A DNA stretch of 41,015 nucleotides from a virus (lineage: Duplodnaviria; Heunggongvirae; Uroviricota; Caudoviricetes): IMG/VR virus record IMGVR_UViG_2537561977_000014. One strand, 5' to 3'. The notes beneath the pieces are model-generated. The model was not told the DNA's origin, made no database searches, and saw only the letters and a program-made list of their open reading frames with translations. A program made the position numbers and the translations under genes. Below are positions 2,919 to 39,477 of this stretch, piece after piece. Each line of letters opens with the position of its first letter. Within the stretch, counting starts at the first letter, position 1.

Positions 2919-4630
2919 ATCATCAGCTTTTTCCGTTTACTTCGGCTCTTCTTCCTGTGCTTCATCTGGTTTTTTTCGTCAAAAGTTTCCTGATAAGTTG
3001 CGTCTCCCATCACCGCGCCACAGTCAGGGCAGTTATCCTCGCCAGTCTGATTGCAGGGTGTTCCCTCCTCCGGTTCGCTGTTCTGGTGCTGTTTATCTTC
3101 AGTCTGTCGCACTTCATTTTCCGTTTTTTTGACTTCATTTGAGGAGATATGATGACCGGGAATCCATTTCGAATCATTCGGGTCGCTAATCCCTTCAACA
3201 AATTCTCCGCGAGAGGCAGCCAGTAATTTGTCTGCATCGACAGGATTTTTGGGCGGAATGTTTTTCTGGGCTTCATGGAGTTCTGTCCGCAGTTTCTGAT
3301 ATTTCGCATCAACAGCATTTACCTGTGACTGAGTATCCAGCGGCTGCGTGTCCTGATGATGTTCAGTTGCATCCGGTTCCACTGTTTCAGCCGTTGCCTG
3401 TTCATCTGCCATTGCGCAAGATGGTTGCGGTTTTTCTTCATCATCCTGTTTTCCTTCTTCTGTTACACGTTGCGGCATCGGGGCAGAGGAGCGACCGCAG
3501 GCAATATCCACGATTTCCGGATCAGGGTTGGCATGATCGGTTTCAGTCAGTACCTTGTTCAGATATTCAGTGACGTGCGCGGGGATGACCTCGATACCAA
3601 TCGGTGCTTCTTTCACTAACGCAACCACGATGGCGCGGGAATAATCCATCCCGCCAGGCATGGTGATGAATTTGTCGCGGAAAACAGAAAAGGGCGGTTT
3701 ATTTTCAGCGATAATTTCCTCGACACGTTTAGCGTGTGCCGGATGAAGGTTATAAATGTCCACGTCCATTGAACGAGCCAGTACGCCAGTGGCTACGTCG
3801 CGCGCCAGTGACGTCAGATCGTGAACGAAACCTTCGCCGCGATCGGTGAGGTTCCCGCCGCCAGCATTAGCACCGGAAGCCGTGCGAGTGATACGCGAAA
3901 CACGATTTCCTTTCATCCACTCTTTTGTCAGCAGACCGCGATCGGTGTAGTTGGCATCCAGATATGCTTCGAAAAAAGCAGTCATCAGTCCCAGATTTGA
4001 ATTGCCAGGATTAGGGAAAACTTTGTCAGTATCACGCACGAGTTTGTGGAGGTCGCGAATCTCCAGCGGGTCGAGCAGACTGGTTTTATGCGAAACAGCC
4101 AGAGCAGTAACAGCCGGTAGTTCTTCATCCCGAGCAATGTGTAATGCCTGGAGTTCGTCGCGTGAAACGTGCGTTACCGGTTTTTCGCTGCCGTGTTGCG
4201 CAAGCCAACGAATGGGCAGTTCCTGACCGGAAACTGGCAGGAGCATGTTCTCCTCAATTTCTGTCATGTCTTCGCCGTTGACGTTGGTATTGTCAGTGCT
4301 GGCTGGTTTGTCCTGAACAGAGGGAGAAGATGCGATAAATACCATTGTGATGCCATCTTCCCCGCCTTTTTCGTAACGGTTGCAGAATTCCGTATCAAAC
4401 ACGCCTTCTGGTGGGAGGTCATCAACAACGGGCAAATTGACGCGAACAGGTTTTTTAAAGTCATCTTCATCGTAGCCAGCATCGTCAATCGCAACAGCAC
4501 CACGGGAGATGGCAATGGATAATTTTTTCGCTTCAGCCCAGTAAAAACCGCCTTTAATACCGAGGCGTTTTCTTACTTTGTCATTTTTTGCTTCGTAATA
4601 CAGTGGGTAAACTTGTTTATCGGTGCTCAT
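2828..4630 (-). CDS. Large acidic early-left-operon protein (~600 aa), function unknown; occupies the recE position of Rac-like prophages
   Basis: Long uninterrupted ORF; start chosen at ATG 4630 (MSTDKQ..), preceded by GAGG ~10 nt upstream; Cys cluster CPDC near C-terminus; no nuclease motif recognised by eye. Confidence 0.6.
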
Positions 4631-4663: not shown

Positions 4664-4948
4664 AAAAGAAACGAACTGATGATGCGATATGAGAGAGTTC
4701 TTTCAGTCGTTGATAACTGATACCGTATTTCTTGTCAGCCTCTTCAATGCGAGCTGTGAGTAATGCAATTTCTTTAATGGCACATACACAACAATCAAAT
4801 GTTCCCAGAACGTAACCGTCATCAATAATTACCGTGACGTTTTCTTTTGGGAAATCTGAATGAAACTATGTAATGTATTCCCACATTTAAATTCGGCGAG
4901 AGAATCGTTAATAACATCAAGTTCAATTCCACATTCAATAATGCTCAT
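4664..4948 (-). pseudogene. Small early gene (~92 codons) split over two frames by an apparent frameshift
   Basis: ATG at 4948 with AAGGAA RBS gives MSIIECGIELDVINDSLAEFKCGNTLHSFI.. then stop; the -1 frame continues ..[52 protein letters not shown]..; switch falls in a TTTCCCAAAAGAAAA tract. Confidence 0.3.
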
Positions 4949-5021
4949 TGCTGTTTCCTTTTTAAGGTTGAGTGAATCCCTGCCATTGCTGGCATAAATT
5001 CAGTTTCGAATATTCAGTTAA

Positions 5022-5348: not shown

Positions 5349-5872
5349 TCATGTTTTAATTGCGCCCCGGTTTACAAGAGTCCAGCCCTGTTTTTCCAGA
5401 TAAAACCGGAAAGTCTCCAGGGTACAGACCAGTGCGCCATCAGGAACGGTTTCGGTGAATTCGACATTGCCGAATTTGTCGAAGTGAACAACCAGAGTGC
5501 GACCATCACCCGGAATCATCTTGTCAGCAGGTGGGGTGTTATTCTGGCGCAGTTCGGCCTCCATGCGGTCGAACTCAGCAATGTAGGCTTCTTTGAATGC
5601 GGCGGCTTTTTGCCAGTGAAGCCCATCACCAGGAAAACGAAGCCGTTTTTGGTGATTTGGTACATTGGGCGTTTTTCGCCTTTGGTGTCGGTGTAGGTGA
5701 CCGACACAAAATTGTGTTCGTTAAAATTTGATGAGCAGTCTAAATTGCGAATTTTATCCAGCACACGTTCGTGGCGTTTGCCGAAGAACTCCGCAATAGC
5801 AACAGACGTAGTGACAGCGCGACCATTTTCGATGGTTACGTCAGGGTGAGAAAGGGCAGGGATAGTAGCCAT
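5349..5872 (-). pseudogene. rha: Phage regulatory protein Rha family, frameshifted
   Basis: N-terminal frame ..AIAEFFGKRHERVLDKIRNL..PMYQITKNGFVFLVMGFTGKK then nonsense; C-terminal homology (MEAELRQ..) resumes in another frame (ORF 5349-5564); frames are reconciled by one extra A in the A5 run (plus-strand TTTTT at 5587-5591). Confidence 0.65.
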
Positions 5873-6140
5873 TTTAGTGGCCTCCTTAACTGTTTTAGTC
5901 TGCGATTACCAGTTAGTAGCTGGTGATCGGGTGTCAACTAGAGCCAGTTAAGAAGCTCCGGGCATATTCCCCTTACGGGTATTGTATTACGCCTCTCCAC
6001 CCGATCTTTGTACGGATGTGCCGTATTTCAGGCATAAAAAGCCGCAAGGCTATCGGGTGCGGATGACCGCTTAACTGTTTCTAGTGCGATCATCTTGCAA
6101 CAATGCAGGTTGCTTTGTCAATATCCCGGATATCAGAAAG

Positions 6141-6190: not shown

Positions 6191-6511
6191 CTAAACTCTG
6201 ATCAATCGTCTGAACAGTAACTGTTTAATATCCTGACGTTGGGAAAGAATCACGTGTGCAGTGATAATATCCTCCTCGACAGAGTACAGCACTCTGTAGC
6301 CTTCTGGTGTGTTGCACTCTCTGTATTTAGCCACGCCAAGCTTGAGCAACTCCGGGCATAACTGACATCCGGACGGGAATGCAGTAACTCTTGTTTCAAA
6401 TCGCTCAAGAATTTCTGCTATTACAGGGCGTGGGTCAATGTCGTTACTCCGGAGATGGTCGGCAATTTGCTCAAGGCTTGTTCTGGCGGTAAGTGTGTAT
6501 TCAACCTGCAT
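6191..6511 (-). CDS. Type II toxin, RelE/ParE superfamily
   Basis: ~106 aa with C-terminal ..EGYRVLYSVEEDIITAHVILSQRQD.. signature; immediately downstream of a Phd/YefM-like ORF. Confidence 0.7.
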   Translation of the reverse strand: MQVEYTLTARTSLEQIADHLRSNDIDPRPVIAEILERFETRVTAFPSGCQLCPELLKLGVAKYRECNTPEGYRVLYSVEEDIITAHVILSQRQDIKQLLFRRLIRV

Positions 6512-6532
6512 AGTTAACCTTAGTTGTTAAAG

Positions 6533-6751
6533 CTATCCAGCAACTGTGCTTTGAAAACACGCGACTTCAGACTTGTCGTTTTCTGAAATAGTGAGAAGTT
6601 TCAGTAACGCAATAGCGTTCTCGCGTTCCTGTTGCTGCTCATAGGATTCAATTACGTATGCAGGAACACCATTCTGCGTGACAAGAATGGGTTCCGCCAG
6701 GTCCAGTGAGGCTGCGTTTTTCTTGATGTAGCTGATAGTTTCTATTTTCAT
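6533..6751 (-). CDS. Type II antitoxin, Phd/YefM-like
   Basis: 72 aa; ..PILVTQNGVPAYVIESYEQQQE.. resembles Phd/YefM; 21 nt upstream of the toxin gene. Confidence 0.65.
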   Translation of the reverse strand: MKIETISYIKKNAASLDLAEPILVTQNGVPAYVIESYEQQQERENAIALLKLLTISENDKSEVACFQSTVAG

Positions 6752-7153
6752 ATGGGTGTTCCTTTTTTCATTGGGAGTTATAATTTAGTCTGAATTTAGT
6801 TTTCTCGCAAGTGGCGGAAGCCGCCAGTTTGGTTTGTTCAAAAAGTCACATCCCGACCCTGCGTTCCGGTTCTGCGGATATATCAGGGCATTCGGCGGCA
6901 CCCCGAATTGTGGTTTACGTGACAGCCCGGTTCATATTGTTAAAGAGCGGCGGATTTCAGGTGTGGAAATCCCCTGCACGAATAACGGTTAATTCGCGCA
7001 TAATTAATTAAATAAATTTTGTTGATGCGGTGCCTGGTGCCTCCAGGTGACGTTAACCAGTTAACAATTAACGCCGGAATAAGGGATTTTCCTTACTGTT
7101 TTAACTGTTCCGCGTGCGCTCAGCCGCATTCACCGCATCACAAAATTCACTTT

Positions 7154-7212
7154 AAAAAGGGCGGCAGAGCAAAACTGATGCCGCCAAAAGTTTCATCGCC
7201 AACAACTCAATC
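7154..7212 (-). ncRNA. dicF: DicF-like small RNA candidate (Qin-type cell-division inhibitor sRNA) with intrinsic terminator
   Basis: Minus-strand ..UUUGGCGGCAUCAGUUUUGCUCUGCCGCCCUUUUU: 7-bp GC stem plus U-run; resembles remembered E. coli DicF core; lies downstream of dicA and the ydfA-B-C-position ORFs as in Qin. Confidence 0.45.
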
Positions 7213-7515
7213 TGGAGATGTTGTGGCGGGTTGTCACTTAATCGTATGGTCAACCTGACAACCCGGTGGACATTTGCGAGGAACGGAGAAACCCCGCCAT
7301 ACTTACCGCCGCGCCATTTCGCGGATTGCCACAACCGGAAGCGCACGGTCGGCGAAAATTTAACGACAGGCTATCTATGACCAGCTACCTCGCCGTGCGC
7401 TTTCGTGTTGTGTGCCTGCTTTTAACCACGTCAGGCGAGGTGGTTCCTGTTATTCCCCAACAACAAGAAATTTGTATAATCTGAATACCCCAACAATAAG
7501 AAGAGTGAGCAAGTG

Positions 7516-7911
7516 ATGTTTGATCTATCATTAGCGATGTCAGCTCTCAAAGAGACTGCATCAATGTTAAAATTATTCAATGAAGCAAAAACTCAGGCTG
7601 AGGTTGATCGCGCTGTGTCTGAAATAAACTCTAAGTTGTCAAGCATTCAGCTTGAATATTTGTCTCTCATTGATGAGCTGACAATCTCTAAAAGCAATGA
7701 GGCTGCGCTCAAAGCAAAACTCACGGAGATAGAAAAGTTTAAGTTCCAAAGTGAAGACTGCGAACCTCGCCAATTGATTACTGGAACGATTGTGTATGCC
7801 AGACAGTGCAATACTAGCTCTGGCAAGATTACCATGTATTTTTGTCCAGAATGTTTTGCGAAGAGAGCAATATCTATATTGCAACCTTTCCCTTATCGAG
7901 GAAGGCGATAA
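7516..7911 (+). CDS. Hypothetical protein: N-terminal coiled coil plus C-terminal Cys4 zinc-ribbon-like motif; AT-rich moron on the opposite strand to flanking genes
   Basis: ORF of 131 codons; Cys pattern C-x14-C...CPEC; TATAAT at 7475-7480 flanked by direct repeats CCCCAACAA(C/T)AAG; visibly lower GC than neighbours. Confidence 0.55.
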   Translation: MFDLSLAMSALKETASMLKLFNEAKTQAEVDRAVSEINSKLSSIQLEYLSLIDELTISKSNEAALKAKLTEIEKFKFQSEDCEPRQLITGTIVYARQCNTSSGKITMYFCPECFAKRAISILQPFPYRGRR

Positions 7912-8101
7912 TATACGAAAACTCAATGTCCCTCCTGTAAAAATGAGTATCTCATGGACTACAATTTCAATAATGATTTTTGAGTCAAGGTATTCAGATT
8001 TTTAAAGAACATGCCGGATACTCACCCGTGTCCGGCGCACGCACTCCACCTCACCCGTGGAGAACTCCTTAATTACCAACCTTGGCTTCGTTGGTTAGCC
8101 A

Positions 8102-8320
8102 TTAACGCTGGTATGTAATCATTCTGGCAATGCTTAATGCCGCTGCTTTTTCCAGCCTGGTGATATCCTGCTCCTGAGCGGACAGATTTTCGGCCTCCTT
8201 AGCCCGGGCTTCATTGGCCCACTTCAGGTCCTGCGCAGCCTGAATTTTCTGGTGCATCCACTCATAAAGTTCATCATCGGTATAGTCTGGCGCGATGATG
8301 ACGGGGTCACGTTTCTGCAT
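8102..8320 (-). CDS. Small phage protein (72 aa) in the YdfC position of a Qin-like dicA operon
   Basis: ORF; position between the YdfB-position ORF and the DicF-like RNA. Confidence 0.5.
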   Translation of the reverse strand: MQKRDPVIIAPDYTDDELYEWMHQKIQAAQDLKWANEARAKEAENLSAQEQDITRLEKAAALSIARMITYQR

Positions 8321-8349: not shown

Positions 8350-8478
8350 TCAGCCGTTAGATTTTGCCGAACTGGAAAGCGCCTGTTTAAACTCACTGAA
8401 GCTGAGAGCTTCTTCGCCTTCGGCAAGGCCTTCGAAGTATTCTTCGTAAGCCTTTTTCATGATTGTGTCGAAATCCAT
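8350..8478 (-). CDS. Small protein (42 aa), YdfB-position ORF
   Basis: ATG at 8478 to stop at 8350 gives MDFDTIMKKAYEEYFEGLAEGEEALSFSEFKQALSSSAKSNG; size and position match Qin ydfB; below the ORF-track cutoff. Confidence 0.4.
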   Translation of the reverse strand: MDFDTIMKKAYEEYFEGLAEGEEALSFSEFKQALSSSAKSNG

Positions 8479-8479
8479 A

Positions 8480-8689
8480 TTACTCACCTGAGTTTCTTTC
8501 CAGCCAGCGACGCGCGCCAGATTCGGTTTTAAACGTTTTGCTTTTGGTATACGTCATCGCGGTGAACGTGCCGTCCTGGTTGGGGAACACGCCGTACACC
8601 AGAGATTCGTTGTTGCCAAGATCGATAGTATTCATGTTGACCCCATTTCCCCTTAACGCCGGGGTAGCGGAACTGTTTGCTGAGAACAC
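8480..8689 (-). CDS. Small phage protein (69 aa), YdfA-position ORF
   Basis: ORF downstream of dicA on the same strand. Confidence 0.5.
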   Translation of the reverse strand: MFSANSSATPALRGNGVNMNTIDLGNNESLVYGVFPNQDGTFTAMTYTKSKTFKTESGARRWLERNSGE

Positions 8690-8836: not shown

Positions 8837-9244
8837 TTATTTGTTTGCGCTTCTTTTGCGAGCTTTGAGTAGTTCTTCAAAAAGTTTGTTGAAATTTTCA
8901 ACTCGAGCACGCATCTCTGACAACAGGGCCTTTTGCTCTGACTCAGGCAGTGCGTCGAACAGTTGAAGTAACTCTTTTTGATCTTCTGTCAGAATGGCTG
9001 GCTGATTATCCGGGATCGGTTCGCCTGGTTGTTTATCTTCATCCCCAAAAAGAAGCCAAGTCGGTGAGCACTGAAGCGCTTGGCTCAGTGCGAATAATCT
9101 TTTCCCCGCCGGCTGTGTTTCATCTCTTTCCCATTGAGAAATTGTTACGTGAGCCACTTTGACCAGCTTACCTAATGCGGCCTGAGACAGTTTTAATTTT
9201 TTACGCCTATGTAAGAGGCGAGCACCGAAGGTTTCGTTTTTCAT
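8837..9244 (-). CDS. dicA: Prophage repressor, DicA-like (HTH_XRE)
   Basis: 135 aa; ..QAALGKLVKVAHVTISQWERDETQPAGKRLFALSQALQCSPTWLLFGDEDKQP..MRARVENFNKLFEELLKARKR closely resembles E. coli DicA; divergent from a DicC-like gene. Confidence 0.85.
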   Translation of the reverse strand: MKNETFGARLLHRRKKLKLSQAALGKLVKVAHVTISQWERDETQPAGKRLFALSQALQCSPTWLLFGDEDKQPGEPIPDNQPAILTEDQKELLQLFDALPESEQKALLSEMRARVENFNKLFEELLKARKRSANK

Positions 9245-9320: not shown

Positions 9321-9548
9321 ATGTTGAAAATTGATGCTATAGCGTTTTTTGGCAGCAAAACAAAGCTTGCCAATGCCGCAGGAGTTAGGCTGGCAAGCAT
9401 TGCTGCATGGGGGGAACTGGTTCCTGAAGGTCGCGCGATGCGCCTGCAAGAGGCATCTGGCGGGGAACTTCAGTACGACCCCAAAGTTTATGACGAATAT
9501 CGTAAGGCAAAACGACCTGGGAAGGTGATTCATGAAAATCAGGCATGA
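9321..9548 (+). CDS. dicC: Cro-like regulator, DicC-like
   Basis: 75 aa; MLKIDAIAFFGSKTKLANAAGVRLASIAAWGELVPEGRAMRLQEASGGELQYDPKVYDEYRK resembles E. coli DicC. Confidence 0.8.
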   Translation: MLKIDAIAFFGSKTKLANAAGVRLASIAAWGELVPEGRAMRLQEASGGELQYDPKVYDEYRKAKRPGKVIHENQA

Positions 9549-13252: not shown

Positions 13253-13479
13253 TTTTATGGGGCACCTTTCTGATTGATTTCATATTGGCGAGGTAAGTAG
13301 AATGACTGCGGGTGCTTGAGGCTATCTGCTTCAGGCATGAACACCAAAAGGCAGATAGAGAAAAGCCCCAGTTAACATTACGCGTCCGGCAAGACGCTTA
13401 ACATTAATCTGAGGCCAATTTCATGCTTTGCACATGTAGGTTAGCCTCTTACATGCCGAAAGGCAAGGAGAAGCAGGCT

Positions 13480-13635
13480 ATGAAGCAGCAAAAGGCGATG
13501 TTAATCGCCCTGATCGTCATCTGTTTAACCGTCATAGTGACGGCACTGGTAACGAGGAAAGACCTCTGTGAGGTACGAATCCGAACCGGCCAGACGGAGG
13601 TCGCTGTCTTCGTAGACTACGAATCCAGGAAGTAA
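13480..13635 (+). CDS. hok: Hok/Gef-family type I toxin (HokD/RelF-like)
   Basis: MKQQKAMLIALIVICLTVIVTALVTRKDLCEVRIRTGQTEVAVF.. matches the Hok family; GC-rich fold-back hairpins and terminator in 13640-13760. Confidence 0.8.
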   Translation: MKQQKAMLIALIVICLTVIVTALVTRKDLCEVRIRTGQTEVAVFVDYESRK

Positions 13636-15839: not shown

Positions 15840-15916
15840 GGCCCTTTAGCTCAGTTGGTCAGAGCGAGCGACTCATAATCGCCAGGTCGCTGGTTCAAGT
15901 CCAGCAAGGGCCACCA
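15840..15916 (+). tRNA. tRNA with CAT anticodon, ileX/ileZ-like (tRNA-Ile2, or Met by anticodon)
   Basis: Cloverleaf folded by hand: acceptor GGCCCTT/AAGGGCC, anticodon loop CTCATAA, T-loop TTCAAGT, 3' CCA. Confidence 0.85.
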
Positions 15917-15917
15917 A

Positions 15918-15994
15918 CCACCACTAGCTCATCCGGATAGAGCATCAACCTTCTAAGTTGACGGTGCGAGGTTCGAGTCCTCGGTGGTGGGCCA
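15918..15994 (+). tRNA. tRNA-Arg (TCT)
   Basis: Acceptor CCACCAC/GTGGTGG, anticodon stem TCAAC/GTTGA, loop CTTCTAA, T-loop TTCGAGT, CCA. Confidence 0.85.
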
Positions 15995-15996
15995 GC

Positions 15997-16072
<76 letters not shown>

Positions 16073-16075
16073 TAT

Positions 16076-16150
<75 letters not shown>

Positions 16151-18416: not shown

Positions 18417-19181
18417 ATGGCAAAACCGGACTGGGAGGCCATCGAATCGGCATACCGGGCCGGAGTCCTTAGCCTCCGTGATATAGGCGAGAAATACGGC
18501 GTTACAGAAGGGGCTATCAGGAAGAGGGCCAAAAAGCTTGGTTGGGCACGCAGTGGCGGTACGCAGGTTTGCAAAAATGGTACGCAAAAAAGGAAAGTGC
18601 GTACCAGCAGAAAGCCTGCCATTACTGGCCTTACACAAAAAAGTACGCAACTAAAAACAGAATCTACACCGGATACGAAACCGATACGCGGAATGCGTAC
18701 CGATCCCCCGACTAACCCATTCCAACCCGGTAACCAGCAGGCATTAAAACACGGTGGTTATGCCCGTCGCCTTCTGCTCAAAGATGAGGTGATAGAGGAC
18801 GCTAAAGCGTTGACGCTCGAGGACGAATTATTTCGCCTTCGTGCTAACAACCTTGTCGCTGCAGAGAATATTGGCCGGTGGTTGGTGTCGCTGGAAGATG
18901 CTAATGGGGACCAGGAAAGGAAGATGCTGATTGAAAATATCAGCGCCGCCGAGAAAGCAATGATGCGCAATACAGTTCGTATTGAGTCCATCGTTGGCAC
19001 GCTTGCGACGGTAGGAAAAATATTTGCTGATACAGCCTACCGCAAGGCCGCCACTGATAAGGTGTCTCTGGAGGCTGATCGTCTTCGCCGTGATGCAGGT
19101 ATTGATGATGGCAATGGAGAGCGTGACCTCAATGACTTCTACTCTGACATCCAAACCGACGCTGAATCCGGCTTTACGTAG
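18417..19181 (+). CDS. Terminase small subunit
   Basis: N-terminal HTH-like segment (..GVLSLRDIGEKYGVTEGAIRKRAKKLGW..); immediately upstream of terminase large subunit. Confidence 0.65.
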   Translation: MAKPDWEAIESAYRAGVLSLRDIGEKYGVTEGAIRKRAKKLGWARSGGTQVCKNGTQKRKVRTSRKPAITGLTQKSTQLKTESTPDTKPIRGMRTDPPTNPFQPGNQQALKHGGYARRLLLKDEVIEDAKALTLEDELFRLRANNLVAAENIGRWLVSLEDANGDQERKMLIENISAAEKAMMRNTVRIESIVGTLATVGKIFADTAYRKAATDKVSLEADRLRRDAGIDDGNGERDLNDFYSDIQTDAESGFT

Positions 19182-20535
19182 TTTCTGGACTATGCGGGCA
19201 CGTAACAAAGTGCTTTATGGTGGTCGGTCATCGTCAAAATCATGGGATGCCGCTGGCATTGCCATATTTCTGTCGAATAAATACACCCTGCGTTTTTGTT
19301 GTGCCCGTCAGATCCAGAATAAAATCGAAGAGTCGGTGTATACCCTGCTCAAAATTCAGATAGACAGGTTTGGTCTGCGGCACCGTTTCCGTATTCTGAA
19401 CAACAAAATCATAAACCGGGTTACTGGCTCGGAATTTGTTTTTTATGGATTATGGCGCAACATCGAAGAAATTAAGTCACTGGAGGGGATCGATGTGTTG
19501 TGGCTGGAAGAAGCCCACGCACTGACGGAATACCAGTGGAAAATTCTGGAGCCAACGATCCGTAAAGAGGGTTCGGAATGCTGGTTCATATTCAACCCCG
19601 GACTTGTTACTGATTTCGTCTGGCGCAACTTCGTTGTTGATCCGCCCGAAGGCACTCTCATCCGCAAAATTAACTATGACGAAAATCCGTTTCTGTCTGA
19701 CACCATGCTTAAGGTTATCGACGCGGCGCGACGCCGTGATCCGGATGGTTTTAAACATGTGTATGAGGGCGTTCCGGAGTCTGATGATGATGCGGCAATC
19801 ATCAAACTGTCTTGGATAGAAGCCGCAGTGGATGCGCACAAAACGTTAAATTTCGAACCCAGTGGAAGAAAGCGTATTGGCTTTGACGTGGCTGACAGTG
19901 GTACAGATAAGTGCGCTAACGTTTACCGTCACGGATCCGTTGTTTTCTGGGCCGACGAATGGAAGGCCAAAGAAGATGAATTACTGAAGAGCTGCCAGCG
20001 TACTTATCAGGCGGCGCTGGAGCGTGAAGCAGATATTGTTTACGACTCTATCGGTGTTGGTGCGTCTGCCGGTGCTAAATTCTCTGAAATTAACGCTGAC
20101 CGGAAGAGCGAGAACGCATACGCGCGACGTGTGAATTACCAGAGGTTTAACGCCGGTGCTGGTGTGCATGAGCCAGATGACGAGTACAACGGCATCCCCA
20201 ACAAAGACTTTTTCGCAAATCTTAAGGCTCAGGCATGGTGGCTGGTGGCTGACCGTTTCAGAAATACGTTTAACGCCATTAACAACGGAGAACAGTATCC
20301 TGTGGATGAGCTGATCAGCATAGATTCTCGTTGTCCGTTGCTTGAAAAGCTGAAACTGGAACTGACAACACCTCATCGTGATTTCGACCGTAACGGACGT
20401 GTGATGGTCGAAAGTAAAAAAGACCTCGCAAAACGCGAGATACCGTCACCAAACGTTGCTGATGCATTCATTATGGCCTTCGCGCCAATCGATACATCGC
20501 TGGATATCTGGGAACAGCTGGGGAGACAGGCCTGA
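19132..20535 (+). CDS. Terminase large subunit
   Basis: ATPase N-terminal region (..YGGRSSSKSWDAAGIAIFL.., ..VLWLEEAH..) and C-terminal nuclease-type acidic residues; start ATG 19132 with GGAG RBS. Confidence 0.8.
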   Translation: MTSTLTSKPTLNPALRSFWTMRARNKVLYGGRSSSKSWDAAGIAIFLSNKYTLRFCCARQIQNKIEESVYTLLKIQIDRFGLRHRFRILNNKIINRVTGSEFVFYGLWRNIEEIKSLEGIDVLWLEEAHALTEYQWKILEPTIRKEGSECWFIFNPGLVTDFVWRNFVVDPPEGTLIRKINYDENPFLSDTMLKVIDAARRRDPDGFKHVYEGVPESDDDAAIIKLSWIEAAVDAHKTLNFEPSGRKRIGFDVADSGTDKCANVYRHGSVVFWADEWKAKEDELLKSCQRTYQAALEREADIVYDSIGVGASAGAKFSEINADRKSENAYARRVNYQRFNAGAGVHEPDDEYNGIPNKDFFANLKAQAWWLVADRFRNTFNAINNGEQYPVDELISIDSRCPLLEKLKLELTTPHRDFDRNGRVMVESKKDLAKREIPSPNVADAFIMAFAPIDTSLDIWEQLGRQA

Positions 20536-22001
20536 TGGCACGAAACAAACAAGCCCTGCGGCGAACTGTGCAGGCCACAGCTGATGGTTATGAGAATTTT
20601 ATTGCCCGCGTAGGGATGCAGACACCTAACCAGCACTCAGCATCCACCTACCGGGCTAATTTCACCAGTCGTAACCGCATGCTGGTGGAATGGTCCTATC
20701 GTTCATCCTGGATCATCGGCGAAGCAGTCGATGCTATCCCGGATGATATGACCCGCAAAGGCATTCGCATCACTTCGGAAATTGATGCAAAAGATCGTGG
20801 CATTCTCGAATCACAACTGGATGAGTTGCAAATCTGGGATGCGCTGAATGACGTGCTGAAATGGTCGCGCCTCTACGGCGGCGCGGTGGGTTTCATCATG
20901 ATTGAGGGGCAGGCACCAATGACCCCGCTGCGACCCGAAACCATCGGTAAGGGCAAGTTTAAGGGGATTCTCCCGCTCGACCGCTGGATGGTCGACCCGG
21001 CACTGACCCGCCGCATTAAAGATATGGGGCCGGACCTGGGTAAACCTGAGTTTTACGATGTGGTGACCACAGCAACGGGAATTCCTGCCTGGCGCATTCA
21101 TCACAGTCGCCTGATTCGCTTTGATGGCGTCACGTTGCCATTTCAGCAGAAGATGACCGAGAACGAATGGGGAATGTCGGTTGTAGAGCGTATCTGGGAT
21201 CGTCTTACCGCGTTCGACAGCGCTACTGTCGGCGCGGCGCAGCTGGTCTACAAGGCGCATTTGCGTACCTACAGCGTGGAGAAGCTACGCGAGCTTATCG
21301 CACTTGGTGGTCCTGCGTATGAAGCGTTGCTGAAGAATATCGACCTGATTCGACAGTTCCAGAGTAATGAAGGCATGACGCTCATGGACTCGCGGGATAA
21401 GTTTGAAACCCATCAGTACAGCTTCAGTGGTCTGGATGACATCCTTTCGCAGTTTGCAGAACAGATTAGTGGCGCTGTTGGTATCCCACTGGTGCGGTTG
21501 TTCGGACAGTCCCCGAAAGGATTTTCTACCGGTGATGCAGACCTTGCCAACTATTACGATCGCATCAGTTCGTTGCAGGAGAGGCGTTTACGTCTTCCGG
21601 TGCGGCGGATACTGGACATCATGCATCGTTCGGAACTTGGCAAGCCGCTGCCGGACGATTTCACGTTTGAGTTTAACCCGCTCTGGCAAATGTCTGATGT
21701 CGATCGCTCAACGGTGGCGTTAAACACCACCAACGCAATCAGTACGGCGCTGGGTGATGGTCTGATGACACTGAAAGCCGCTATGACTGATTTGCGAGAA
21801 AATTCTGACGTAACCGGCATCGGGGCATCCATTACCGACGAGGACATCGAGAATGCCGAAGATGAAGCGCCGCCCGGCATCGGCGAACCTGATGACGAAC
21901 CGCAGGAGCCGTCAGGCGGAAATCCGGTATCGAACCAGCCTACGCAGGATAGCGAGGGCGGTCGGAGACATCGTAAATGGTCGCTACGATGGTTCAAATG
22001 A
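20535..22001 (+). CDS. Portal protein
   Basis: 488 aa ORF directly after terminase; start overlaps terminase stop. Confidence 0.75.
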   Translation: MARNKQALRRTVQATADGYENFIARVGMQTPNQHSASTYRANFTSRNRMLVEWSYRSSWIIGEAVDAIPDDMTRKGIRITSEIDAKDRGILESQLDELQIWDALNDVLKWSRLYGGAVGFIMIEGQAPMTPLRPETIGKGKFKGILPLDRWMVDPALTRRIKDMGPDLGKPEFYDVVTTATGIPAWRIHHSRLIRFDGVTLPFQQKMTENEWGMSVVERIWDRLTAFDSATVGAAQLVYKAHLRTYSVEKLRELIALGGPAYEALLKNIDLIRQFQSNEGMTLMDSRDKFETHQYSFSGLDDILSQFAEQISGAVGIPLVRLFGQSPKGFSTGDADLANYYDRISSLQERRLRLPVRRILDIMHRSELGKPLPDDFTFEFNPLWQMSDVDRSTVALNTTNAISTALGDGLMTLKAAMTDLRENSDVTGIGASITDEDIENAEDEAPPGIGEPDDEPQEPSGGNPVSNQPTQDSEGGRRHRKWSLRWFK

Positions 22002-35605: not shown

Positions 35606-36874
35606 ATGTCTGTAGTGATATCAGGTGCGCTGACTGATGGCGCAGGTATCCCCATGTCCGGATACCATATTATTCTGAAATCCCGGGTAAACACCCCGGA
35701 AGTGGTTATGCACACTGTTGCTGATGTGATGACAGGAAACGATGGTGAATACTGTTTCCATGCGCGGACTGGAAAATATGGTGTGTATCTGAAACAGGAC
35801 TGGCGCAACGAGTACAACGTTGGCGACATTGCTGTATATGAGGACTCAAAGCCCGGCACGCTGAATGACTTTCTGATTGCTCCTGATGAGGGCGACCTGA
35901 AACCGGATGTCGTCAAACGCTTTGAGGAAATGGTGGCGCAGGCGCAGCAGAGCGCCGGGGCCGCAGCCGGAAACGCACAGCAGACGGCGCAGGATGTGGC
36001 GGCAGCCGCAGGTTATGCCCGCGCAGCAGAACAGGCCAAAAATGACATTGATGCTGCGCTGACCGGCACTCTGAAAACGGCTAACCATCTGTCTGAAATC
36101 GCAGCAGCAGGCGAAAAGGCACAACAGAAGTCCCGGGATAATCTGGGGCTGAAAAGTGCAGCCACGATGGAAGCACAGAGCGACATTTACGACCGGACAA
36201 AAGGCCGTCTGGCGATACCCGGCGCATTCGGCTTTGGGCGTGCTTTTCTGCCTGAAGATGTTATCCGTTTTGACACTAAGAGTGATTTCCTGGCCTGGGT
36301 AAGGAATGCGCTGCCAGGTGAATATTCCGTTGCTGGCCCCTACGACATCATCATACCCGACACACGGTTTGAAGGGGTGCTCAGCATCCGGTGGACTGAT
36401 GCACGCCCTGAGACAACAGAACCGAGGTACAGAGCCAAATCCCTTACTTTTTACGGCATTAACGGCCCCATTTATCACACCCGCTACTGCTACTGGCCCA
36501 TATCCAGACTGACTGGCTGGGTGAAAATAAATATAACCACAGAAGATATTATTTACAGAATCGTGGCGAGCTCTGTCCGCAACAGATGGGGAGACCCTGA
36601 CATTGGCGGGCTGATTATTGCTGCGTACCAGGGAGAAGCTGACGGTGATAAAGTCATCAGACTTGTCAGGGGGCAGTCATACAGAGGCTCACGACTGGGA
36701 CCGGTGGGGATTTCAGTGCCCAGTACTCCCACCGGAACGTATATAGCATCCCCACAATTTTTCATTACGGGATGTTCAGAGCATTCATTACCGGGGTCAT
36801 ATTGCGCCCTGTCCGGGGTGCCGGATGCACATGTCTCTGGCGCAATGCCCGGGCTTTTTATTCGCACATCGTGA
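35606..36874 (+). CDS. Side tail fiber protein (lambda Stf-like N-terminal domain)
   Basis: N-terminus MSVVISGALTDGAGIPMSGYHIILKSRVNTPEVV..YGVYLKQDW..VYEDSKPGTLNDFL resembles the prophage tail-fibre N-terminal domain of lambda Stf. Confidence 0.8.
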   Translation: MSVVISGALTDGAGIPMSGYHIILKSRVNTPEVVMHTVADVMTGNDGEYCFHARTGKYGVYLKQDWRNEYNVGDIAVYEDSKPGTLNDFLIAPDEGDLKPDVVKRFEEMVAQAQQSAGAAAGNAQQTAQDVAAAAGYARAAEQAKNDIDAALTGTLKTANHLSEIAAAGEKAQQKSRDNLGLKSAATMEAQSDIYDRTKGRLAIPGAFGFGRAFLPEDVIRFDTKSDFLAWVRNALPGEYSVAGPYDIIIPDTRFEGVLSIRWTDARPETTEPRYRAKSLTFYGINGPIYHTRYCYWPISRLTGWVKINITTEDIIYRIVASSVRNRWGDPDIGGLIIAAYQGEADGDKVIRLVRGQSYRGSRLGPVGISVPSTPTGTYIASPQFFITGCSEHSLPGSYCALSGVPDAHVSGAMPGLFIRTS

Positions 36875-36884
36875 GGAATGCACC

Positions 36885-37447
36885 GTGGAAATTAAAAAAA
36901 TCATTAATCCCCGTTATACCGAAAGTGGCGCAGTAGACTGTGACGTTTTTTTGACGACAGGGACCAGGCAGTCCCCTACACAGCCACCGCTGATGATGTC
37001 GCTCCGACGGGTCAGCAAATCTGGCAGGAACTGCAAAGCGGCAAATGGGGTGAGATAGCCCCATTCACTGTGACACCAGAAATGCTGGAAGCGGCCAGAG
37101 AGGCCAGACGTCAGGAAATTGAAGCATGGCGCGCAGAACAGGAGGCGAAGCCGTTCACGTTTGAATGGAACGGTCGTATCTGGAATGCTGGTCCCGACTC
37201 ACTGGGCCGCCTGTCCCCGGTAGTCATGCTGGCAAAATCTGTCACAGCACAAACACATATGGCGTGGAGCGATGCCGATAATCAGCAGGTGAAACTGTCG
37301 ATGCCGGAACTGGAAGAACTGGCGGCAGCAATGGTGCAGGCGCAGGTCGATCGCAACGATGAGATTTATCGCCGTCAGCGGGAGATGAAAGAGGAGCTGA
37401 GCAGTCTGGATGATTTGGCTTCAATTCGGGCGTTTGACGTTAAGTAA
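36885..37447 (+). pseudogene. tfa: Tail fiber assembly protein (Tfa) with a frameshift in a T7 homopolymer (36946-36952)
   Basis: GTG 36885 after GAGGAA gives VEIKKIINPRYTESGAVDCDVF then shifts; family sequence continues in frame of ORF 37070-37447 (..YTATADDVAPTGQQIWQELQSGKWGEIAPFTVTPEMLEA..); one extra T would join them. Confidence 0.65.
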
Positions 37448-37561
37448 TGAATAAGCCGCAACTGGCGGAATCACAGAAGACCGCTTTGCTTACCGAGGCG
37501 GAGTCTGTCATCCGGCCGCCGGGGCGTGCGGTCAGGCTGAACAGGGAAACGGATGAATCCG

Positions 37562-37590
37562 GGGAGGCCCGGGGGCGGGCCTCTGTTTTT
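37562..37590 (+). terminator. Rho-independent terminator downstream of the tail fiber/tfa operon
   Basis: GGAGGCCCGGGGGCGGGCCTC hairpin followed by TGTTTTT. Confidence 0.55.
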
Positions 37591-37626
37591 CCGGAGTCAG
37601 TCCGGTCTGTGGTTTATGCGATGTGA

Positions 37627-39342
37627 TTATGAATGGTGCAGTTGTGAGCCGTTTTCAGGCAATCGCAGGGCCAGTACCTCGTCAGTCAGCTGACGGTAAA
37701 TCTGCTGTTCAGTCTCACGCATCACCTGTGCACCGGCTTCCCTCTCCGCATCCGCATCACCGCTCAGACCTGATGCTTTCAGCCGGTCAGCCACCCTCTG
37801 AGGGTACTCATTCTCCAGCATCTCATATTTCTGCTCTTCTGCCAGCGCCCAGCGGTCAGCTTCCGTACGCTTCAGTACAGCATGCCATGGTCCCCAGAGG
37901 GAGAACCAGTCCGTAAATTCATTCTCTTCACGGCTTCTGACCATGGCTTCGGCAGTGCGGAGGTCATTTGCTGTCACTCCCGACACGCCATAGAAACGCA
38001 TTTCCTTCACGGCAGTGGAGAGCTGAAGTTTCTCTGCGAGCATGGTCTGGAAGGCCAGGTAGACTTCTATCTCATCCACAAAATGGAGAGTTCTGACTTT
38101 ATCCCGGGCAATGTCCTCCAGAATTTCGAGGCGGAACATTTCCCTGCCCAGGGAGAGCAGAGCGCCGGTATCATTATCGAAAAGGCCTTCTGATGCCTGA
38201 TGGACCAGGAGGGTTTTCCGGAGATTGTTCCATGTGAGCGCGACACGGTCCTCACAGCTCTCAGTGGCATCAGCAGCAACAGTGAAAGACTGCTGTCGAA
38301 GCTCCGCAGAGGCACTGAGTTTTTCCAGCCATGCAGCGACCTGTTCACGGAATCCGGAGGTATTGCGTGCAGAGACGGTATCGGAAAGGCGGTCAAGGAA
38401 CGCGGAAAAGGTGTTGGCATGCTCTTCATGTTCAAAAGCATGCCATATCTGTGATACATCAGATTGTTTGTTTTCCGGGAACCATGCTGTCACGGCATCA
38501 GCCAGGGGGCGATGGAGTGTATTCTGTTGTCCGTCACTCATGGAGAAGTAAATCCGTGGGCCGTGGTAGTCCGGTTGGGCGGTTTGTTGCGACAGAGACT
38601 CCCTGATCCGTGAGGACAGAGGATTGTCTTCGAGGATGATAGTGCAGGTCGGATCAAGGCTAAGTATATTTTCCGGAATGTGTGTGATGCGATTCTCGCG
38701 GCACCGGAAAAATATCTCGGTTTCCTCTGAGTGATGATTTCTTACAGGTACGGCTGGTAGGCTTTCCAGAAGATTAGTACTTACATCGAGCGCTTCCAGT
38801 GATTCAGGTAACTCAGGGAGAAATGTCAGCTGGTTATTTCTTACTGAGAGCACTTCCAGCGATGTAGGTAATTCAGGAAGCATGGTTAGCTGATTGTTAT
38901 CTGCATTAATATATTCCAGCAATGCAGGCAATTCAGGAAGCATGGTTAGTTGGTTGTTATCTACATCAAGATGTTTCAGAGATGCGGGTAATTCAGGAAG
39001 TGTTGACAGGTGATTGTCACAGGCGTCAAGGTATTCCAGCGATGCTGGCAATTCTGGTAATGATATTAGGGCATTCTGAGTAATTTCCAGAACAGTGATT
39101 TGAGGTGGTAAGTTGTCAGGTAGCGAGGACAGATTTAAACGATTCAGTTGAAGCTCACTGAACTGATTGATGAGACATTCTTTAAGTAGGGAGACCGCTT
39201 CATTCCGATTTTCACCGGGGAGCGCTTGTTTTTCCCATTTATCCCATGCTGAAAAGTAATCAGCATATGTACCGGAAATAGTGTTATAAAAAGAATTTTG
39301 GGACAATGAAAAGTTATTATTTATCGGTAACATGATGGACAT
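37627..39342 (-). CDS. ipaH: IpaH-family type III secretion effector, novel E3 ubiquitin ligase (N-terminal LRR domain, C-terminal NEL domain)
   Basis: 571 aa; N-terminus MSIMLPINNNFSLSQNSFYNTISGTYADYFSAWDKWEKQALPGENRNEAVSLLKECLINQFSELQLNRLNLSSLPDNLPPQITVLEIT; tandem 20-residue LxxLPxLPxxLxxLxxxxNx repeats; NEL signature ..AADATESCEDRVALTWNNL.. with catalytic Cys. Confidence 0.9.
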   Translation of the reverse strand: MSIMLPINNNFSLSQNSFYNTISGTYADYFSAWDKWEKQALPGENRNEAVSLLKECLINQFSELQLNRLNLSSLPDNLPPQITVLEITQNALISLPELPASLEYLDACDNHLSTLPELPASLKHLDVDNNQLTMLPELPALLEYINADNNQLTMLPELPTSLEVLSVRNNQLTFLPELPESLEALDVSTNLLESLPAVPVRNHHSEETEIFFRCRENRITHIPENILSLDPTCTIILEDNPLSSRIRESLSQQTAQPDYHGPRIYFSMSDGQQNTLHRPLADAVTAWFPENKQSDVSQIWHAFEHEEHANTFSAFLDRLSDTVSARNTSGFREQVAAWLEKLSASAELRQQSFTVAADATESCEDRVALTWNNLRKTLLVHQASEGLFDNDTGALLSLGREMFRLEILEDIARDKVRTLHFVDEIEVYLAFQTMLAEKLQLSTAVKEMRFYGVSGVTANDLRTAEAMVRSREENEFTDWFSLWGPWHAVLKRTEADRWALAEEQKYEMLENEYPQRVADRLKASGLSGDADAEREAGAQVMRETEQQIYRQLTDEVLALRLPENGSQLHHS

Positions 39343-39461
39343 TCAGTTAAAGCCGATGGACAAATGGCTTTGTTAAAAGAAATAAGTAGGAGTTTTTATG
39401 AAGTTCATTCCATGAAATGAACTTCAGCACTTTTTTATTATAAAAGGACAAACAAAATTGG

Positions 39462-39477
39462 CTGTAAAAAACGATAC
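39462..39477 (-). promoter_or_regulatory. MxiE-box-like motif with downstream TATAAT (39437-39442) in the ipaH promoter region
   Basis: Minus-strand GTATCGTTTTTTACAG versus remembered consensus GTATCGTTTTTTTANAG; ~120 nt upstream of the ipaH ATG; TATAAT ~20 nt downstream of the box. Confidence 0.55.

Follow-up and report, generated by a model that had tools for sequence, protein, structure and literature searches.

What does the small AT-rich gene encode that lies about 0.9 kb left of the repressor, on the strand opposite to its neighbours, in a Qin/Rac-type lambdoid prophage? The gene is found in a stretch of 41,015 nucleotides (IMG/VR virus record IMGVR_UViG_2537561977_000014, called the window in what follows), where a preliminary description had picked it out as a 131-codon open reading frame (ORF) preceded by a promoter-like TATAAT and direct repeats. 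Here we conclude that it is very probably an anti-phage moron of the Rip1 family, placed antisense in the DicA-repressed early-left operon of a Rac/Qin-like lambdoid prophage, and that the copy as written is probably inactive. The ORF, its low GC content, its orientation, the TATAAT and the repeats are all real; what had been missed is that the ORF is a frameshifted fragment. It does run on the + strand from the ATG at 7516 to the TAA at 7909-7911, but it is not a complete gene: it is part of an interrupted gene of 155 codons.

Assignment to the Rip1 family

When the 155-amino acid protein, as restored by repair of the two indels described below, was compared with the PDB by phmmer, the sole significant match was 9oox_L, 'ring interacting pore 1 (Rip1)' (E=1.3e-7), with residues 10-147 of 155 aligned to residues 21-157 of 164. 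This chain belongs to the entry entitled 'Cryo-EM structure of the Escherichia phage HK446 Rip1 in complex with the Enterobacteria phage T6 small terminase'. A profile built from 60 sequences of the family matched 9oox_L over nearly its full length (hmmsearch, E=5.9e-37), and the same family profile recognized orf25 of the Pseudomonas phage D3112 by hhalign (probability 99.9%, E=1.6e-35). The ORF of the window also matched phrog_1244 (E=1.4e-29, 103.5 bits, ORF residues 4-128 against profile positions 4-129 of 157), a PHROG without functional annotation that appears to be the same family as Rip1.

The extent of the family depended on the search. A word-indexed protein search gave one real relative only; the family surfaced in an exhaustive HMMER search of 1.84 billion representatives, made with P0001, a Salmonella protein 88% identical to the window protein, which returned 243 clusters (at 50% identity) with E<=1e-3, nearly all of 145-180 amino acids. 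Among 91 family members, C110 and C113 are invariant, and C138, C141, G90, Y94 and L122 (in a SILQ motif) are conserved in at least 90%.

The predicted structure is that of full-length P0001, not of the window ORF itself. The AlphaFold2 model, based on an alignment of the 91 sequences (mean predicted local distance difference test score 92.5), has two helices, 4-23 and 27-79, and after them a small beta domain with the four cysteines; the stretch that had been taken for a coiled coil corresponds to these two helices. A Foldseek search of the PDB found only 9oox_M and 9oox_L (for 9oox_M, probability 1.00, template modelling (TM) score 0.82 normalized by the target and 0.68 by the query, root-mean-square deviation 2.9 A), the next-best match having E=0.2 and no other falling below E=0.1. 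The N-terminal helix 4-23 is moderately amphipathic (hydrophobic moment 0.35-0.37 for windows over residues 4-24), and no transmembrane segment was predicted, the highest Kyte-Doolittle mean over 19 residues being 0.72; both observations agree with Rip1 without being discriminating. Membership in the Rip1 family is thus well supported both by sequence and by predicted fold. The profile and structure searches that had been proposed for this ORF led to Rip1, and the function is therefore not undescribed, as the preliminary description had supposed: the family was characterized in 2026 and has a solved structure (9oox), despite having no model in Pfam, NCBIfam or PADLOC 2.0 and being of unknown function in PHROGs.

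Scans of Pfam and NCBIfam gave nothing significant, and no family of PADLOC-DB 2.0.0 (Rex, Abi and others), a release older than the description of Rip1, was matched at E<=1. The closest NCBIfam model, the ECs_2282 family zinc-binding protein (NF047912), reached 13.9 bits against a cut-off of 37 (E=0.039) and covered the Cys motif region only. This weak CxxC match is one of the reasons to consider that the protein might be a zinc-ribbon regulatory or exclusion protein that forms no pore, such as an anti-repressor, a DNA-binding protein or a SieB-like protein; ribbons of the CxxC...CxxC type are common among small phage regulators, and the homologue HkaP of phage HK620 was historically labelled only 'putative superinfection exclusion'. 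We consider this very improbable, as the homology and fold match to Rip1 span the full length with nothing else significant in the PDB, whereas the zinc-finger matches are restricted to the Cys motif region and no Pfam domain is present.

That the ORF is a chance reading frame in AT-rich spacer DNA deserves practically no credence. Small size and the absence of any Pfam domain are all that speaks for it, and it is already refuted by the homology data: the 243 homologous clusters with conserved length and motifs, the PHROG 1244 match (E=1.4e-29) and the solved homologue. The ratio of non-synonymous to synonymous polymorphism (pN/pS) argues in the same direction, being 0.29 between the alleles of E. 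coli VL40 and WGI31CT (7 synonymous and 8 non-synonymous differences); judged from these differences, the intact alleles are under purifying selection.

Disruption of the gene in the window

The allele is rare, being present at 80% coverage or more in only 4 complete E. coli genomes. Two indels in the window were defined by alignment and base-by-base comparison with the four near-identical E. coli copies (VL40, RMDEC465, WGI31CT and PSJ-22). In VL40, the region is 99.7% identical to that of the window and the gene is annotated as a protein of 155 amino acids (WP_052327206.1). The coding features are as follows.

7516-7911, + strand: Rip1-family coding sequence as read, 131 codons and a premature TAA; codons 1-126 authentic, codons 127-131 out of frame
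7843-7854, + strand: first CxxC, CPEC, residues 110-113, invariant in the 91 family members
7893-7894, + strand: site of the +1 T frameshift; TT in the window (CCCTT), a single T (CCCT) in VL40, RMDEC465, WGI31CT and PSJ-22
7909-7911, + strand: premature TAA; the A-run is AA at 7910-7911 in the window (GATAAT) and AAA in the other copies (GATAAAT)
7912-7983, + strand: orphaned 3' end (YTKTQCPSCKNEYLMDYNFNNDF followed by TGA), carrying the second CxxC
7927-7938, + strand: second CxxC, CPSC; C138 and C141 conserved in at least 90% of the family

The additional T changes codons 127-131 from the IEEGD of the other copies to YRGRR and turns Lys132 into the TAA, and the missing A puts the original frame back directly after this TAA, where it continues as YTKTQCPSCKNEYLMDYNFNNDF*. 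Once both indels are repaired, the full gene has 155 codons (7516-7983) and ends at a TGA (7981-7983). An in-frame GTG stands at 7513, ahead of the ATG. The match of the ORF to phrog_1244, which ends at position 129 of the 157 positions of the profile, shows the same shortening.

The preliminary description had also noted a zinc-ribbon motif. Its first CxxC lies in the 131-codon ORF, but the second lies outside, behind the TAA, so that the set of both pairs (C110, C113, C138 and C141) is absent from the window ORF and present in the repaired reading, in VL40 and in WGI31CT. By its sequence, then, the gene of the window is a Rip1 member by descent and a disrupted copy. The truncation costs the protein its last 24 residues, among them two of the four conserved cysteines and the final two predicted beta-strands (133-137 and 144-149), and the residues lost belong to the domain that contacts the ring in the Rip1 complex. 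The truncated product, left with two of its four probable zinc ligands and without these strands, is most likely inactive, its sensor domain probably being unable to fold.

Decay or sequencing error

The frameshift is either real decay or a sequencing error, and we do not choose between the two. The alternative to decay is that the real organism has an intact, active gene and that the extra T and the missing A are errors of sequencing or assembly. Between 419 and 8674, where the window is 97.8% identical to VL40, there are 16 indels relative to VL40, nearly all of them contractions by one nucleotide of T4-T9 or A6 runs in the window; such contractions split ORFs that are intact in VL40 (among them Rha, 'DNA breaking-rejoining' and the Phd antitoxin), and the pattern is typical of homopolymer sequencing error. 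Moreover, the stretch 7380-8100 differs from VL40 by no substitution and by the two indels only, which compensate each other in frame. An exact-protein lookup of the 131-amino acid truncated product gave no record in an index of 153 billion genes, and the exact frameshifted 38-mer was not found in the GTDB representative genomes. However, the two indels in the rip1 gene lie outside long homopolymers (T1 to T2 and A3 to A2), and one of them is an insertion, whereas the window in general shows contraction of runs of at least 4. Sister copies of the same allele have, besides, unquestionably decayed through other, independent lesions. Two nonsense codons interrupt the PSJ-22 copy; a 10-bp deletion has removed the first seven codons in RMDEC465; and in the copies of Shigella flexneri SFBU1023 and E. 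coli ECMA0423 the 10-bp deletion is accompanied by a +1 insertion and by a change of CAA to TAA. On balance, an artefact is a serious possibility that falls just short of an even call.

The comparison with VL40 bears on other genes too. In the window segment 36001-41015, the differences from the VL40 locus likewise include many contractions by one nucleotide of T4-T9 or A6-A7 homopolymers. Genes that are split in the window and intact in VL40 are Rha (5349-5872), the 'DNA breaking-rejoining' gene (about 4700-5000), the C-terminus of Phd (near 6549/6564) and an ORF of the tail-fibre region (at 36945). The pattern across the window suggests either systematic sequencing error or widespread decay, and the ORF calls need care.

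At the loci of S. flexneri SFBU1023 and E. coli ECMA0423, the same rip1 allele stands at 3960-4470 as an obvious pseudogene, at most about 700 bp from sequence that matches the ipaH-proximal right end of the window (window 36707-39827). In these genomes, then, the remainder of the prophage is deleted.

Genomic position and related systems

The ORF is indeed AT-rich, as had been noted, its GC content being 0.383, compared with 0.491 in the window overall and 0.46 in the ydfCBA-dicA block. The ORF list also bears out its orientation against the flanking genes: it is on the + strand and all its neighbours are on the - strand.

6191-6751, - strand: Phd/YefM-ParE toxin-antitoxin pair, on the other side of the ORF from the repressor
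7159-7195, - strand: degenerate DicF-like element (27.9 bits against a gathering score of 48), with an internal deletion, GGCGG...CCGCC stem and T-run kept
8102-8320, - strand: ydfC (phrog_1744)
8350-8487, - strand: ydfB
8480-8689, - strand: DUF1391/ydfA gene
8837-9244, - strand: dicA-like helix-turn-helix repressor

The broken Rha gene is also on the Phd/ParE side, on the - strand. Beyond the repressor, on the + strand, come a DicC/Cro-like gene (9321-9548), a ydaT-like gene and the replication genes. A full DicF (76-77 bits) occupies the equivalent place, upstream of dicB, in three of the related loci (L005, L006 and L012), and the slot order in other E. coli prophages is ydfC, the rip1-like gene (antisense), DicF and dicB. 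From the DicF-like element we conclude that the gene of the window sits antisense inside an early operon of the ydfABC-dicF-dicB type.

Two side observations concern the same operon. An STnc100-like element follows the DicF-like element on the - strand (6988-7157), below threshold at 38.9 bits against a gathering score of 47. The Phd/YefM-ParE pair (6191-6751, - strand) stands where related prophages have dicB and a DUF1482 gene, apparently through a further exchange of cassettes in this early operon.

The Rip1 gene of HK446 (gp37), which has been studied by experiment, is found on the opposite strand in the leftward early operon, directly past N and about 1.2 kb from the repressor. HK446 Rip1 (YP_007111990.1; PDB 9oox) and the window gene agree in family, in predicted fold, in the opposite-strand slot near the repressor, in size (164 and 155 amino acids) and in the four conserved Cys and the SILQ motif. 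They differ in that sequence identity is about 24-27%, in that the window copy is frameshifted, and in that HK446 Rip1 belongs to a lambda-type pL operon, where it directly follows N, and the window gene to an operon of the DicA/DicC type (Qin/Rac-like), where it lies between ydfC and dicF. Judged by Rip1 homology and by this shared slot, the earlier suggestion of an abortive-infection or exclusion moron by the immunity region named the right class.

HkaP of HK620, HK630 and HK629 is a further member (tblastn E=2e-10, 25% identity, 94% coverage), but a distant allele relative to the window gene. It shares the antisense placement, lying between N/hkaQ and cIII; in HK620 and HK630 it lies antisense inside the pL operon, just past N. 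The HK620 record names HkaP a 'putative superinfection exclusion protein' and places the tL1 terminator of the antisense operon inside hkaP; our literature search found no functional test of hkaP.

Two Mu-like Pseudomonas phages, D3112 and Cline, carry their family member in antisense orientation, with a TerS-like DNA-binding gene on one side and TerL on the other, an arrangement that fits the description of Pseudomonas Rip1 in the review PMC13434031. The Rip1 of Pseudomonas aeruginosa prophages and D3112 orf25 belong to the same family, with sensor and effector in one protein, and are antisense in the lytic operon; these genes differ from that of the window in that they stand in the late region, where the small and large terminase genes flank them, and not beside the immunity region. 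Antisense placement relative to the lytic operon is therefore common to the window, HK446, HK620, HK630 and D3112, which is our own observation and not part of the published definition of the family.

RexAB of lambda and SieB of lambda and P22 are other systems of abortive infection expressed by lysogens from genes in or beside the immunity region or the pL operon, and they kill via the membrane. RexB and SieB are, however, integral membrane proteins unrelated to the Rip1-like protein, which has no predicted transmembrane segment, and RexAB is a two-component system.

Upstream promoter and repeats

The following elements precede the gene.

7452-7469, + strand: direct repeat 1, ATTCCCCAACAACAAGAA, overlapping the putative promoter at its spacer and -35 region; invariant in the seven loci with coding regions of 26-43% amino acid identity
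7475-7480, + strand: putative -10 hexamer TATAAT, invariant in an alignment of seven loci
7485-7502, + strand: direct repeat 2, ATACCCCAACAATAAGAA, covering the expected transcription start and the leader up to the ribosome-binding site

The preliminary description had read here a near-consensus TATAAT flanked by 13-bp direct repeats. The repeats, CCCCAACAACAAG (7455-7467) and CCCCAACAATAAG (7488-7500), are as described and match at 12 of 13 positions. The TATAAT is exact, but it is absent from a consensus promoter scan; the scan looks for two hexamers and did not list it because no acceptable -35 accompanies it. Of the -35 candidates, the best matches at 3 of 6 positions, and a TG abuts the TATAAT, so that no extended -10 (TGnTATAAT) is present. 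In their 18-nucleotide form, the repeats match at 16 of 18 positions and are spaced by 33 nucleotides, that is, three helical turns, which places them on the same helical face; such a spacing of two repeats is typical for an operator pair. A repeat this good within 200 nucleotides occurred in 2 of 300 dinucleotide-preserving shuffles of the segment 6900-8150, and the motif was not found elsewhere in the 41-kb window at two mismatches or fewer. The DicA-like repressor is not an obvious binder of the repeats, their motif being unrelated to the CCTAAG/CTTAGG repeats around the dicA and dicC promoters. Repeat 2 also reads as (ARN)4 triplets (AAC AAT AAG AAG) in the leader, a candidate for an Hfq-type site on which we do not rely.

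The 96-nucleotide promoter block is present in 77 of 5,426 complete E. coli genomes. Seven loci whose coding regions share 26-43% amino acid identity hardly differ in their DNA between about 7395 and the second repeat, and divergence starts at the start codon.

One explanation of this conservation is that the upstream block belongs to the backbone of the antisense early operon, as precursor or leader of dicF-dicB on the - strand, and that the TATAAT and the repeats are incidental. The invariant block does extend upstream to about 7330, into the sequence that precedes DicF on the - strand, there is no -35 at the TATAAT, and in an inverted repeat at 7336-7348/7393-7405 a G-to-A variant keeps the pairing (as G.U) only in the RNA of the - strand. 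On the other hand, the boundary between near-invariant DNA and coding sequence of 26-43% identity falls exactly at the start codon; the TATAAT is about 35 nucleotides upstream of the ATG, and GAAGAG/GAG offers a plausible ribosome-binding site; some promoter must serve the gene, and the + strand scan gave no other candidate; and the repeat is statistically unusual (2 of 300 shuffles). We therefore regard an incidental origin of these elements as possible but rather unlikely. The 13-nucleotide inverted repeat itself is 92% complementary; the G-to-A variant occurs in O103 and other loci, and the pairing that it keeps hints that the RNA of the antisense operon is structured there.

At the locus of E. 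coli C5, the RefSeq rip1 homologue (871-1506) is annotated with 211 amino acids, from a start far upstream that carries the reading frame through the promoter and repeat block (MRFRVVCLLLTTSGEVVPVVPQQQEICII...). The call is probably a mis-annotation of the start site. The same upstream frame is open in the window at 7266-7484.

How an intact allele might act

The Rip1 family was described by Patel et al. (Nature 651:1060, 2026; doi 10.1038/s41586-025-10075-1), whose work is taken here as summarized in PMC13434031. In that summary, Rip1 is a single prophage-encoded protein, non-toxic alone, which upon superinfection disrupts the integrity of the inner membrane. The escape mutations it reports affect the small terminase in E. 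coli phages and the portal, not the small terminase, in Pseudomonas phages. Its account of the cryo-electron microscopy has 12 Rip1 subunits around an 11-mer ring of the small terminase, the C-terminal half of Rip1 touching the ring and the N-terminal amphipathic helices making a pore, and it mentions dye release from liposomes by Rip1 complexes and homologues widespread in Proteobacteria, mainly in prophages. PMC13601566 also names the small terminase subunit as what Rip1 senses.

By homology, an intact allele of the window gene most likely works like the published Rip1. The protein would be made in the lysogen off its own promoter and would be harmless alone. When a superinfecting phage makes the ring-shaped oligomers of its packaging machinery (the 11-mer small terminase, or the portal), about 12 Rip1 subunits would dock round the ring through the C-terminal zinc-ribbon/beta domain, and the N-terminal amphipathic helices, gathered in this way, would form a membrane pore. 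Loss of membrane integrity before maturation of the progeny would amount to abortive infection. These steps are extrapolated, for the intact allele, from the published Rip1 proteins of HK446 and Pseudomonas.

The prophage of the window encodes its own TerL (19024-20535), portal (20535-22001) and capsid genes, and it therefore faces a problem of self-triggering. We infer that convergent lytic transcription upon prophage induction would silence the antisense gene, sparing the prophage's own terminase and portal. More tentatively still, the module might be a switch that confines expression to lysogeny: a factor would bind the repeats, convergent lytic transcription would shut the gene off so that the phage spares itself, and the promoter block would serve as a recombination anchor for the swapping of sensor alleles. 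We put this forward because a near-invariant promoter that lacks a -35 stands in 77 E. coli genomes over alleles of 26-43% identity, and because antisense nesting is found in lambdoid and Mu-like phages alike; it is a rather unlikely proposal as things stand.

Several points weigh against our reading of the locus as a whole. The mechanism of Rip1 is known here through the review PMC13434031 and the title of PDB entry 9oox. Identity to HK446 Rip1 is only about 24-27%, and the activity of the alleles of the E. coli/Shigella clade is predicted from that of relatives. The truncation may be a sequencing artefact, given the other homopolymer contractions that break ORFs in the window. The promoter is putative and has no -35, expression from the TATAAT being predicted only, and silencing by convergent transcription is likewise something that we infer.

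Other features of the window

Two hairpins lie between the end of the gene and the convergent ydfC.

8010-8033, no strand assigned: hairpin GCCGGA-12-TCCGGC
about 8044-8063, no strand assigned: hairpin CTCCAC-7-GTGGAG

Both contain CTCACCCGTG and are terminator-like on the - strand only. Conservation of the stretch 8010-8063 extends to about 3,900 of 5,426 E. coli genomes, and the hairpins may be a terminator or a processing site of the ydfABC-dicF-dicB transcript. No Rfam family was found within the gene itself. Elsewhere in the window, Rfam matches above the gathering score were the following.

1079-1257: RalA antitoxin small RNA (Rac-type ralR/ralA)
5917-6006, - strand: sRNA-Xcc1, next to the broken Rha gene
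13310-13485: sok/CssrC, beside a hok-like region
15840-16147: four tandem tRNA genes, upstream of the lysis genes

At its right end, the prophage carries a gene for an IpaH-type effector of the type III secretion system, with LRR_TTSS and NEL E3 ligase domains (37627-39342, - strand), and a match to the CssrB small RNA adjoins it (39470-39652). The strain of origin is therefore of a Shigella/EIEC-like type.

Implications

The gene of the window is a new and divergent member of the Rip1 family, here disrupted. The truncated copy, with half of its zinc site gone, may do nothing in this strain, and it is not to be counted as a working defence before the frameshift has been checked. The assignment gives a name and a testable mechanism to a gene left 'hypothetical' by RefSeq, PHROGs, Pfam, NCBIfam and PADLOC 2.0, and it marks the ydfC-dicF/dicB slot of Qin/Rac-like prophages of E. 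coli and Shigella as a Rip1 defence slot with highly diversified alleles. The question of self and non-self aside, the gene is unremarkable, though divergent, within a family whose structure and function have been characterized already. The promoter and repeat module, together with the antisense placement seen throughout the family, offers a way into how a prophage avoids triggering its own ring sensor: if expression is indeed confined to lysogeny in the manner proposed, a sensor of universally conserved ring proteins could avoid killing its own phage.

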